DNA from: a bacterium
Lineage (GTDB): Bacteria > RBG-13-61-14 > DATKZS01
Assembly: GCA_963674965.2 (NCBI GenBank)
Contig: CAXXFL010000001.1
Coordinates: 1,376,001 to 1,440,000, forward strand
Direction: 5' to 3'
DNA: 64,000 nucleotides
Part shown: positions 53,917 through 57,195 of the stretch, one piece after another
How the letters are laid out: each line of letters opens with the position of its first letter
How positions within the stretch are numbered: the first letter of the stretch is position 1
Made by a program: the position numbers and the translations under genes
The notes under the pieces: model-generated
What the model saw: only the letters and a program-made list of their open reading frames with translations
Told to the model about the DNA's origin: nothing
Databases searched by the model: none

Positions 53917-54981
53917 TTATTCCGTCTCTCCAAAGGGCTCGACAAGGACCTTGATCGAGTTGCCGGCGCCGGCCACCAGCATGAACCCTTTGCCCGCCTC
54001 CTCCAGGGGAAGGCAGTGGGTGATCATGTCCGCGACGGGCAAGCGCTTATACTGGATCAGCTCGATGGCCCGTTCAATATCGGTGGGAGCGCAGGCGTAA
54101 GAAGGCATAAGGGTGATGCCGTTACGCCAGAATTCCTGCACCGGAACGGGCAGGTGTACTCCCGGATCGGTGGGCGCGAAGAACATTACCGTTCCTCCCC
54201 GGTCGACCGACTTCAGGGCCTGCTCGAAGGCCGGGTAGGCGCCGGTGCAGATAATTACCAGGTCGGCCGGGCGGCCGCATATCTCGACCAGCCTGGCGGG
54301 CACGTCCTCATCCGCCTTGATCGTGGCCTCGGCCCCGAAACGCCTGGCCGCCTCGAGACGGTAGTCGTTCATGTCGGTGGCGACGATCATGCCCGCGCCC
54401 AACGCCTTGGCCAGGGCCACGTGAAGAAGACCCGACAGGCCGGCGCCCAAGACGAGAACGCTTATGCCGGGCCGAGTCTTCGCCAGCCTCTGGCCCCGAT
54501 ACACGCAGGCCAAGGGCTCGATGAACACGCCTTCCCGGTAGGTCATCGAGTCGGGAATCACGAACGTGCCCCGGTCAACGTTGATCTCGGGCACGCGAAG
54601 ATACTCGGCGAAGCCCCCCGGAAAAAAGTTGGTGGTATGAAGGGTCTCGCAAACCGTGTGGTGGCCGTTGACGCAGTAGTGGCAGGAGTTGCAGGGAACG
54701 TGATGGGACACGAACACGCGCTGGCCCACTTGATACTTATCCACCTTCGCGCCCGCGGCGACTATCTCCCCGGCGATCTCGTGGCCCAGCACCAGGGGAG
54801 CGCGTTTTATCCTGTACCATTCCATCACGTCGGAGCCGCAGATGCCGCTGGCCATGACCTTGACCAGCATCTCGTGCGGTCCGATCTCCGGCACGGGCAT
54901 GGTCTCGGTCCGCACGTCGGCGTTCCTGTAGTACATGGCCACTCGCATGTCCGATCCTGGCGCGGGAGCGGGACTGGTCAT
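53917..54981 (-). CDS. Zinc-dependent alcohol/sugar-alcohol dehydrogenase (MDR)
   Basis: GICGSD, LGHE, CNSCHYC..C, GAGLSG; AGGAGA RBS 7 nt upstream. Confidence 0.9.
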   Translation of the reverse strand: MTSPAPAPGSDMRVAMYYRNADVRTETMPVPEIGPHEMLVKVMASGICGSDVMEWYRIKRAPLVLGHEIAGEIVAAGAKVDKYQVGQRVFVSHHVPCNSCHYCVNGHHTVCETLHTTNFFPGGFAEYLRVPEINVDRGTFVIPDSMTYREGVFIEPLACVYRGQRLAKTRPGISVLVLGAGLSGLLHVALAKALGAGMIVATDMNDYRLEAARRFGAEATIKADEDVPARLVEICGRPADLVIICTGAYPAFEQALKSVDRGGTVMFFAPTDPGVHLPVPVQEFWRNGITLMPSYACAPTDIERAIELIQYKRLPVADMITHCLPLEEAGKGFMLVAGAGNSIKVLVEPFGETE

Positions 54982-55044
54982 AATAGTCTCTCCTATGATG
55001 GTTGTCTACCCAACCTTTTAAATTAGCTGAATTATTTTACAAAC

Positions 55045-56061
55045 TCAGCCTTTCGCTATTACTCCGTTCGGGAAGTCCTCCCAAATCAAGTTTTCCTGTA
55101 AAGTGATGTAAATGATCTTCAAAAATTTGCGAGCCAGCGCGATGATGGCCTTGCCCGCGCCGCGCCTGGCCTTGATACGCTCGTAGAAGCTCGACAAATA
55201 AGGGCTGTAACGCTTGGCGATGAGGGCGCATTGGACCAGGGTAGTGCGGCCGAGTTTGTTGCCCCGCTTCGTGATCCGGCCCGAGCGGCTGGTCTCGTTC
55301 GAGTTGCTAACCCGGGGGACGATGCCGAAGTAGGAGGCCAGCTTGCCCTCGTCGGGGAAGTCCTTGACGTCAACGATCACCGACAAAAGTATGGCCGAGC
55401 CAAGGTCCCCGATACCCTTTATGCTCTTCAAATTCTTGTGACCGGGAAGCTGATTGCCCGAGTCCTTGATGGCGGCCTCAAGCTCCTTGACCCCGGCGTT
55501 CAAGCCCCGAATCTGCTCCACCAGGACGCGGACCTCGGTCTTGACCATGGGGTCGAAAGGTATCTCCTGCACCGTCTCAAGGCCCTTCTCGCTGGAAAGA
55601 TATTCCTTCTTCAGGTTGATGCCGTGGGCCGAGCAGATGTTGTTGATCTTGTTCTTCAAGGCCGTGCGAAGCTTCACCAGCTTGTCCCGGCTTTGAGTGA
55701 GGCTTTTAACCTGAGCGTGTTCCTTGTTCGGCATCCTCACCTCCGGCAAAAGGCCCTTGGACAAAAACAGGGCAAGGCGTCTGGCGTCGTTGCCGTCCGT
55801 TTTGTTGACCGACTCGCTGATGACCTTGAACTGGCGAGGGTTGACAACCACGACGCGGGAAACGAGGCCGCGAACGGCGTCGTAAAAAAGGCGGACGTTG
55901 CCCGTGACCTCAACCGCGATCTCGTCGGACTCGCGAAGCGTCGAGCAAAACTTCTCCAAATCCTCGAGACGCCAGTCCTTGAGATAGTTCCGTCCGTTCT
56001 CGGCCAGGACGCAAGAGGTGAAACAATTCCTGTGCAGATCGATTCCAATGTACCTTCCCAT
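55045..56061 (-). CDS. IS110-family DEDD recombinase/transposase
   Basis: YIGIDLH, AVEVTG, KTDGNDA (DEDD); SIKGIG, FGIVPRVSNS catalytic-Ser region, RITKRGNK, KAIIALARK. Confidence 0.95.
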   Translation of the reverse strand: MGRYIGIDLHRNCFTSCVLAENGRNYLKDWRLEDLEKFCSTLRESDEIAVEVTGNVRLFYDAVRGLVSRVVVVNPRQFKVISESVNKTDGNDARRLALFLSKGLLPEVRMPNKEHAQVKSLTQSRDKLVKLRTALKNKINNICSAHGINLKKEYLSSEKGLETVQEIPFDPMVKTEVRVLVEQIRGLNAGVKELEAAIKDSGNQLPGHKNLKSIKGIGDLGSAILLSVIVDVKDFPDEGKLASYFGIVPRVSNSNETSRSGRITKRGNKLGRTTLVQCALIAKRYSPYLSSFYERIKARRGAGKAIIALARKFLKIIYITLQENLIWEDFPNGVIAKG

Positions 56062-56089
56062 TTCCTTACTCCTCCCTAGAAATAAATTT

Positions 56090-56250
56090 GATCTAAGGTC
56101 GGAGTAGACACGCTTTGAGGGGCCGCCAAACTCCTATACAAGGTCTAGCCTTACGGTGGCGCTCCAGTCGCGGGGCTGACTAATCTCCTTTACGAGGTCA
56201 TAAGCCTCACGAAAACGATCCAGCCCACGACCCGCCTACTCCAATAGATC
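56090..56250 (-). ncRNA. Putative IS110 bridge RNA
   Basis: Closing stem plus two hairpins with internal loops; G-U wobbles work only on the minus strand; loops contain AAAGGAGA (target match) and ATAGGAG (donor match). Confidence 0.75.
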
Positions 56251-56321
56251 ATTCCTAACCTAGTTGAAGTATTTACCACCTCAAAACTCTTCATTCATAC
56301 CATCTCCTTTTTATGCATAAT

Positions 56322-56345
56322 AAGGGGCGCCATCCCGCGCCCCTT
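56322..56345 (-). terminator. Stem-loop downstream of lsrF-like gene
   Basis: AAGGGGCGC-N6-GCGCCCCTT perfect 9-bp stem with a weak U tract. Confidence 0.55.
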
Positions 56346-56355
56346 GTCCGGTAGG

Positions 56356-57168
56356 TTATTTCGCCTTCTTTTCCTTCTTTTTATCGTTCTTGGCTTTAAG
56401 GTCCTTGAACATCTCGAGGGCCTCCTTTGGCGGCGTGTTCTTGTGCACCACCGAGCGGACGGCCTGGATCATGGCCACCGGGTCGGTCGATTGGAAAATG
56501 TTGCGTCCCATGTCGACTCCCACCGCGCCCTGCTGCACCGCGCTGTAGGCCATCTCGAGGGCTTCCTTTTCAGGTATCTTTTTGCCGCCCGCGATCACGA
56601 TGGGCACGGGGCAGGTATTGACCACCTTCTCGAACTCCTCGCAGTGATAGGTCTTGACGATGTGCGCGCCCAGCTCGGCCGCGATGCGGGAGGCCAGGGC
56701 AAGGTAGCGGGCGTCGCGGCCCATCTGTTTTCCCACCGCGGTCACGGCCACCACGGGTATGCCGTTTTCCTCGGCCTCGTTGATCAGGTTGGAAAGGCCA
56801 AGGAGGGTCTGCTTCTCGTTCTCAGCGCCCACGAAGATGCTAAGCGCCACGCCCGAGACGTTAAGCCGGATGGCCTCGCGCATGCTGGTGGTGATGCCCT
56901 CGTCGCTAAGCTCGCCCAGGACGCTCGAGCCCCCCGAGACCCTGAGCACGATGGGTATGTTGGTCTTGGCGTCCACCGAGGTTCGCAGCATGCCCCGGTT
57001 GAGCATGAGAGTGTCGGCGTAGGGCAAAAGCGGCTTGATGTTCTCTCCCAGCTTTTCGAGCCCGGTCGTCGGGCCAAGGAAGTAGCCGTGGTCGACGGCC
57101 AGCATTACGGTACGGTTAGTCTTCGGATTAATAATACTGTACAGACGGTTTTCCAGTCCCCAATCCAT
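56356..57168 (-). CDS. lsrF: LsrF-like class I aldolase/thiolase (DhnA family)
   Basis: MDWG start, [52 protein letters not shown]. Confidence 0.88.
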
Positions 57169-57195
57169 CTCCACTCCTCCTGTTTTTTCCCCGGA

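Follow-up and report, generated by a model that had tools for sequence, protein, structure and literature searches.

The window analysed here is a 64,000-nucleotide stretch of a bacterial genome (GTDB lineage Bacteria; RBG-13-61-14; DATKZS01), taken from GenBank assembly GCA_963674965.2, contig CAXXFL010000001.1, forward-strand positions 1,376,001 to 1,440,000. Near its end an insertion sequence lies between two genes of the same orientation, coding for an aldolase and an alcohol dehydrogenase. An earlier note, made from the sequence alone, had described it as an element apparently programmed to land in Shine-Dalgarno (SD) sites and rebuild them. The features of the locus are as follows, in window coordinates.

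54990..56303, minus strand: whole insertion sequence, 1314 bp; identical in extent across ten copies, equal to the period of a tandem pair, and consistent with a joint 56302->54989 in sequencing run X3.
55045..56061, minus strand: transposase (recombinase) gene, 338 aa; PF01548, PF02371, NF033542.
56062..56303, minus strand: left non-coding end encoding a putative bridge-type RNA, two-loop core at about 56102-56241; conserved structure and no open reading frame (ORF) beyond mini-ORFs.
56184..56191, minus strand: 3' arm of the first (target) loop, AAAGGAG+A, AAAGGAGA; sense of the left target half, with flank covariation.
56153..56156, minus strand: 5' arm of the second (donor) loop, CCGU (4 nt); complementary to ATGG, the first four bases of the left end.
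56131..56137, minus strand: 3' arm of the donor loop, AUAGGAG; sense of the right-end terminus CATAGGAG.
54990..55044, minus strand: right end, finishing TAGACAACCATCATAGGAG, source of the replacement AGGAG; identical in 10/10 copies.
56304..56310, minus strand: left target half AAAGGAG, the host SD, with the putative crossover core at its 3' end; present at 9/10 left junctions and complementary to the 3' end of 16S rRNA.
53917..54981, minus strand: zinc-type alcohol dehydrogenase gene, 354 aa, ADH_N and ADH_zinc_N domains; start codon 8 nt after the rebuilt AGGAG.
56356..57174, minus strand: upstream DeoC/LacD-family aldolase gene (Pfam assignment), former operon neighbour of the dehydrogenase gene.

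The hexamer TCTCCT (AGGAGA on the minus strand) occurs at 54989-54994 and 56303-56308, with a spacing of 1314 bp, exactly as the earlier note had it, and the same unit is shared by ten copies in the genome. The layout of every copy is ...AAAGGAG|ATGGTATG...CATCATAGGAG|N(3-8)-start codon. On the minus strand of the window the left junction reads AAAAAGGAG|ATGGTATGAATG (...GCATAAAAAGGAG|ATGGTATGAATG... at 56310-56292), and the right junction reads CCATCATAGGAG|AGACTATT-ATG (...GGGTAGACAACCATCATAGGAG|AGACTATT-ATG at 55011-54979), the ATG being 54981-54979. Nine of the ten left junctions have AAAGGAG followed by ATGGTATGAATG; the tenth belongs to the second unit of a tandem pair on contig 7, which abuts the CATAGGAG of the first unit, while the right end is CCATCATAGGAG in all ten. 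All copies have 5 nt, AGGAG, in common between their two junctions. A sixth common base, A, is found in some copies only, among them the window copy by accident of its flank, and the AGGAGA originally proposed is thus valid for this copy and shortens to AGGAG for the set. The limits 56303 to 54990 assign the shared AGGAG to the right end, so that it enters the length once. The 16S rRNA of this genome ends in ...CACCTCCTTTCT and reads ...GGATCACCTCCTTTCT, so that AAAGGAG(G) is the full SD sequence in this organism.

The 6.5 Mb genome, assembled in 7 contigs, contains ten full copies with identities of 99.70-100%, and one 48-nt left-end fragment. The tandem pair on contig 7 (6724-9359) is arranged head to tail with a single AGGAG between the units. 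A joint of right end and left end was also found in one 445-nt contig of depth 4.3 from run X3 of a second sample; it could equally represent a tandem or a circle, which the joint alone does not distinguish. Short-read contigs break at the element, and the copies and the tandem could for that reason be suspected to be assembly artefacts of one element. This is very improbable, as nine different flank pairs are present within the 7-contig assembly, loose contig ends at both borders match the flanks of other copies (for example, that of the copy at C3:182343), and in two runs of one sample the element contig has a depth of 159-178 against 16-26 for the flanks. The latter ratio, about 7-11-fold, fits about ten copies. 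The solo fragment lies on contig 6 (1074153-1074200) and is preceded by CCCAAAGGAG; the sequence upstream of it is paralogous to that flanking the contig-7 tandem. Among 12 other genomes of the same phylum there is no close relative of the transposase, the best having 29% identity (genome G002), and a single-protein search of genome contigs returned one match only, also at 29% identity.

The transposase has an N-terminal DEDD/RuvC-like domain (PF01548, residues 5-141, E 2.5e-15) and a C-terminal Tnp domain (PF02371, residues 209-294, E 1.6e-21), and scores 221.5 bits against the NF033542 profile, 'IS110 family RNA-guided transposase', with a cut-off of 140. The assignment to the IS110 family made from sequence alone is thereby borne out. 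Residues D8, E51, D89, D92 and S254 are invariant across 30 relatives, and the first four align with D, E, D and D of IS621 chain 8wt6_A, which we take to be the catalytic positions of IS621. Other traits of the family are a junction repeat limited to the core and a single orientation relative to the motif at every locus. The element is very probably an active, RNA-guided mobile element of this family.

A search of JGI metagenomes with the 30-sequence alignment gave 80 loci of 64-85% protein identity; metagenomic protein relatives are numerous, at 67-85% identity, and mostly lie on contigs of 1.1-2.5 kb. The left junction together with a flank of at least 8 nt was recovered for 67 of the 80 loci. 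It ends in AG at 66 of them, in AGGAG at 63, in AAGGAG at 60 and in AAAGGAG at 42, and 61 of 63 right ends finish with CATAGGAG. The length of the element at the 55 loci with both ends found is 1307-1622 bp. These alignments indicate that targeting of the SD motif is a property of a large clade and not of a single element, and in all copies of this genome, as in all metagenome loci with both junctions, transposase and downstream gene point the same way.

A more distant relative with the same anatomy is carried by plasmid pHSL4 of Tardibacter chloracetimidivorans (NZ_CP018225.1), where its sole annotation is 'IS110 family transposase'. At 49.8% protein identity, its left junction is GAAGGAG|CTGGCATGAATG, its loop GUGAAGGAGCUU matches its own flank, and its right end is CATCATAGGAG|ACAACCG-ATG. 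Unlike in the window element, the TAG that ends the transposase gene is part of the terminal CATAGGAG, which leaves almost no right end. The start codon of the next ORF follows 7 nt further on (1925-1950 of the locus), a layout that would allow translational coupling.

The presence of AGGAG on both sides of the element might also be explained as a target-site duplication made by a cut-and-paste transposase, and the window copy is indeed flanked by the same 5-6 bases. Against this, the protein is a DEDD/IS110 recombinase, the right end is constant in 61/63 loci whatever the target, the tandem junction contains a single AGGAG, and at three metagenome loci (L057, L055 and L031) the left junction is without AGGAG while the right end retains it. 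At L057 the left junction CACAGAG and the right end CATAGGAG share only (G)AG; AGGAG is therefore not a target duplication, and this hypothesis, already contradicted, was rejected as scarcely credible.

The 241-nt left end was aligned with 67 non-identical relatives and analysed with RNAalifold and by a separate count of pairs. The predicted fold comprises a 5' hairpin and a long-range stem, GAGUAGAC/GUCUACUC, enclosing two modules that each consist of a stem, an internal loop and a stem-loop. Six helices with 39 pairs are supported, 98.5% of cells being paired and 13 pairs changed in both partners (141 cells). None of 500 shuffles reached these values on any measure, shuffling being a control that does not account for relatedness, and slid controls gave 29-45% paired.

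The 3' arm of the target loop has the consensus GU-N-AAGGAG-AUU. In the window element it is the loop that the earlier note read as an SD consensus, and its variable base follows the flank: the base preceding AAGGAG in the loop equals the flank base at -7 in 56/64 loci (shuffle mean 33.2; 0/10,000 shuffles reach 56), while matches at -8 and -9 are at the level of chance. Where the loop triplet is not AAA, it equals the flank triplet in 14/19 cases, for example TGA/TGA (L034), AGA/AGA (L088) and CAC/CAC (L057), and at L057 the whole loop CACAGAG is repeated in the flank. The target guide thus appears to be 7 nt long and to have the sense of the left target half, so that it would pair with the bottom strand. 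In the donor loop the 3' arm is G-N-AUAGGAG, and ATAGGAG is invariant in 68/68 aligned left ends; it matches CATAGGAG, neither of the two varying. The donor 5' arm occurs as CCGU, CCAU or UCAU and pairs, by Watson-Crick or G-U pairs, with the ATGG or ATGA at which the left end begins, in 67, 64, 67 and 62 of 67 loci at positions 1-4. At position 4, C-to-U changes covary with G-to-A changes to a degree reached by 0/5000 shuffles, with the variants clustering by lineage. Judged from sequence comparison, SD targeting and SD rebuilding are real and RNA-specified.

On this basis the following mechanism may be proposed. The left end would be transcribed into a two-loop RNA bound by the recombinase, the target loop of which carries a 7-nt guide NAAGGAG (AAAGGAG here), that is, an SD sequence, while AUAGGAG and CCGU of the donor loop would recognise the abutted ends CATAGGAG|ATGG of an excised, presumably circular, form. 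Crossover would take place in the AGGAG common to donor and target, at its final AG or at most GAG; the bound of (G)AG follows from what the L057 junction and right end have in common, and a core of AG may be assumed by analogy with the 2-nt core of IS621. As the guide is strand-specific, the element would always enter co-oriented with the gene served by the SD. After insertion the host AAAGGAG would precede the element and face only mini-ORFs of 2-14 codons, and the terminal AGGAG of the element would stand as far from the host start codon as the original motif did, the gene thus keeping a ribosome-binding site (RBS) and remaining translatable from read-through transcripts. The abutted ends exist as DNA in the contig-7 tandem and in the one contig of run X3, and by eye a TAGACA-17-TATGAA arrangement with an upstream TG can be seen across them.

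The junctions agree with this scheme in several respects. A crossover inside AGGAG leaves the spacing between this motif and the downstream gene as it was, and only the three bases before the motif are changed by the insertion, AAA to ATA. The rebuilding claimed for this locus, in which the right end supplies the AGGAG that serves as SD of the downstream gene at unchanged spacing, is thereby upheld. The host SD at the left junction faces ATG-GTA-TGA and then, 5 nt after it, ATG-AAT with an early stop (56303-56280, minus strand). The first of these mini-ORFs has 2 codons in 67/68 left ends and the second has 2-14 codons in 67/68, and GTATGAAT (or GATGAAT) is almost invariant among the 68 aligned left ends. 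The guide match at the left junction stays intact after insertion, which would explain the contig-7 tandem, a nested left end at L031 and the joint in run X3. In the L031 case the first left end is incomplete, and another begins within its 5' hairpin, at GGAAGAAG.

The nine independent insertion sites in the genome were examined for a start codon and an ORF of at least 60 codons after the motif, and the same test was applied genome-wide as a background, with the element's own junctions set aside for AAAGGAG. At seven of the nine, AGGAG is followed at 3-8 nt by a start codon whose ORF runs for 93-354 codons, in accordance with the predicted SD landing sites. In five of the seven ORFs Pfam domains begin within the first 34 residues, namely alcohol dehydrogenase, ATP synthase subunit c, zinc-ribbon/DUF4190, cytidylate-kinase-like and nitronate monooxygenase. 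The background is 536/2039 (26%) for AAAGGAG, 1620/6659 (24%) for AAGGAG and 904/6669 (13.6%) for the reverse-strand control CTCCTT; the binomial tail for 7/9 against 26% is 0.0019. The element's sites in this genome are real gene starts about threefold more often than the motif alone predicts. Among metagenome loci, where an ORF of at least 60 codons or open to the contig end was accepted, 40 of 52 distinct right flanks (at least 40 nt long) have a start codon 3-13 nt downstream.

The background also shows what the guide does not achieve. The earlier note held that aiming at the SD spares coding sequence, a claim that is not supported here, as only about a quarter of AAAGGAG sites precede a start codon and an ORF; the guide alone neither explains the gene-start bias nor keeps the element out of coding DNA. 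To account for the surplus at gene starts, one must invoke either selection acting on completed insertions or some contextual preference additional to the guide. It is possible, though somewhat less than an even chance, that the guide specifies merely an abundant 7-mer, that the bias arises from the loss of insertions within genes, and that the rebuilt SD is a by-product of an AGGAG core. The low share of gene starts among AAAGGAG and AAGGAG sites favours this account, as do the failure to find a specific guide for the right flank and the occurrence of insertions at non-gene sites, in other copies of the element and at near-matches of the motif (the contig-7 tandem, the nested L031, a TAAGAG site at L055 and an ACAGGAG site at L063). 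However, the ten copies are 99.7-100% identical, which leaves little time for purging, and yet 7/9 of the sites are at gene starts. Relatives down to 50% protein identity also retain the terminal CATAGGAG and the opening ATGGTATGAAT of the left end, and the reverse complement of the target-loop 5' arm, which is 49% A and contains ATG in 27/67 elements, resembles a spacer with a start codon.

The favoured interpretation remains that of an active IS110-family (DEDD, bridge-RNA type) insertion sequence whose two-loop RNA carries the SD sequence as a guide and whose insertion rebuilds AGGAG, which we consider highly probable. A number of results weigh against it or parts of it. Two of the nine sites in the genome fail the gene-start test, the one at C3:21906 having an ORF of only 9 codons and the one at C2:65267 having no start codon, so that the proposed coincidence with RBSs holds for most sites and not for all, and 74% of genomic AAAGGAG occurrences lie elsewhere than at gene starts. 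Of the metagenome right flanks 12/52 fail as well, several of them (L057, L078, L059 and L041) with extra repeats between AGGAG and ATG. Five of the 19 reprogrammed loops (L031, L056, L086, L089 and L092) do not match their flanks, and the flank differs for 6/45 AAA loops. An Rfam scan by E-value of 54800-56500 gave no family match, and a scan for sigma-70 consensus promoters across the abutted ends gave none. None of the assembled contigs listed for public runs skips the element, contigs being evidence of presence and not of absence.

A further unfavourable result is that no element-specific pairing between the target-loop 5' arm and the right flank could be demonstrated over three tests, which disagreed with one another. 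Fixed-register complementarity gave p = 0.03-0.25, position matches with a shift of +/-2 gave p = 0.004-0.013, and the longest shared word was 3.75 observed versus 3.75 shuffled (p = 0.51). The arm is 11-13 nt long, variable and U/G-rich, and is in a generic way complementary to A-rich spacers. Word sharing with right flanks is highest for its reverse complement (mean 3.75), followed by the sense (3.40) and reversed (2.88) sequences; this complementarity does not hold for the window's own arm and is a lead only. The first base of the right flank is a purine in 42/49 loci (A 28, G 14).

Right flanks start with GAG in 9/49 loci (L042, L056, L057, L063, L070, L071, L078, L080 and L089), three of which read GAGGAGGAG. 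Such GAG repeats could have been left behind if successive rounds of insertion and excision slipped in register from one AG of AGGAG to the other. At L041 and L059 the right end has a tandem repeat of its final 16-19 bases.

Regarding the genes around the window copy, orthologues of the dehydrogenase were found in 4/4 family relatives, and in 3/4 the aldolase gene is directly upstream and co-oriented, with no insertion sequence between. These relatives are too diverged to give the exact empty site and attest only the adjacency of the two genes. A G+C-rich hairpin, GGGGCGC...GCGCCCC, is present between the aldolase stop codon and the dehydrogenase SD (56313-56345, minus strand), with no clear T run. 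The sense strand of the right end contains no terminator-like site, so that read-through from the element into the host gene is plausible, and the downstream genes may still be expressed. Another copy, on contig 6 (L002; 275724-280056), has an ATP-synt_A ORF on one side and the ATP-synt_C, ATP-synt_B and alpha/beta genes on the other. With only 108 aa, a match to profile positions 114-216 of 217 and a phosphoglucomutase gene directly adjoining, this ORF gives the appearance of a truncated subunit-a gene. A second subunit-c gene is present elsewhere in the genome.

Insertion at SD sequences has a precedent in the IS110 family. IS900 and IS901 of Mycobacterium avium insert between the SD and the start codon (Doran 1997 and Inglis 2003, as cited in PMC2942039), and the target motif of IS900 given in a 2021 genome study is CATGNNNNNNTCTCCTT (PMC8141618), which is the reverse complement of AAGGAGA-N6-CATG and essentially the motif of the window element. 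The likeness, as judged from the published motif and description of IS900, thus comprises the family and, as the target, an SD motif closely preceding a start codon. The novelty that the earlier note saw in such targeting, as distinct from the REP- or attC-targeting known for other IS110/IS1111 members, was therefore overstated. The published motif is written in the orientation of IS900 itself, which, as far as these sources go, places its transposase opposite to the targeted gene, whereas it is co-oriented here. IS900 is also said to use host signals for an antisense ORF, hed, whereas the host SD faces only ORFs of 2-14 codons in the present case. A 282-aa ORF antisense to the transposase gene of the window element (55231-56079, plus strand) recalls hed; it is not fed by the host SD, and with 58% G+C antisense ORFs of such length are no rarity.

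Site specificity and RNA guidance are established for IS110 elements (PMC11208160, PMC11187229), and as these studies describe it IS621/ISEc21 resembles the window element in having a DEDD and Tnp-domain recombinase, a non-coding RNA upstream of the gene, a first loop for the target and a second for the donor, guides that overlap a short core, and natural reprogramming. The recombinases are distant (E 6.6e-13 to PDB 8wt6; best aligned stretch at query residues 185-325). As described there, IS621 has a long bottom-strand guide on the 5' arm and a short top-strand guide on the 3' arm; the window element has the opposite order, with 7-nt sense guides on the 3' arms and a 4-nt top-strand complement on the donor 5' arm. 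The guide-arm order of known systems was taken from textual descriptions, with 'top' read as the transposase-sense strand. Donor and target share five bases, AGGAG, in the window element as compared with a 2-nt core only in IS621 (PMC11208160), and no clear right-target guide was found here, in difference to IS621. Elements of the IS1111 type (ISEc11, ISPa11, ISKpn4) are similar in that the top-strand complement of their seekRNA is 5' of the bottom-strand complement (PMC11187229); by the same account their RNA region is downstream of the transposase gene and their ends have subterminal inverted repeats, whereas the RNA of the window element is upstream. Inspection of the ends of the window element by eye, no repeat tool being applied, revealed no conserved inverted repeat. 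In the literature searched, nothing links bridge RNA, seekRNA or an IS110 guide to SD targeting or to IS900; the supplementary target motifs of PMC11208160 and target logos of PMC11187229, which were outside this search, may list such targets.

Taken together, the mechanism outlined in the earlier note is largely right and its novelty moderate. Novel features are the orientation shared with the downstream gene, the donor core identical to an SD and the guide-arm order opposite to that of IS621, and the analysis adds to a known kind of element an explanation at the RNA level, clade-wide evidence, natural reprogramming and a different guide layout. A bolder proposal, which we regard as rather unlikely though possible, is that the clade uses the whole initiation region as a landing pad, with an SD arm, a degenerate arm complementary to the A-rich spacer and start codon, and an SD donor core. 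Insertion would then be translationally silent and the host gene coupled to transcription of the element, the arm order would be one undescribed for elements with an upstream RNA, and register slips would write GAG-repeat footprints into host RBSs.

For the engineering of bridge recombinases, these elements may offer a natural 7-nt left guide with little or no right-side requirement and with reversed guide arms. The observation made on IS900 in 1997 gains a plausible explanation at the RNA level, one absent from the literature searched. For the host, the element sits within apparent operons, those of aldolase and dehydrogenase and of ATP synthase subunits a and c. An RNA-guided element of this kind can target a motif that precedes most genes without destroying them and would so avoid a cost to its host, since the motif in which crossover would occur is also part of the element, and the ribosome-binding site is thus retained at either junction.

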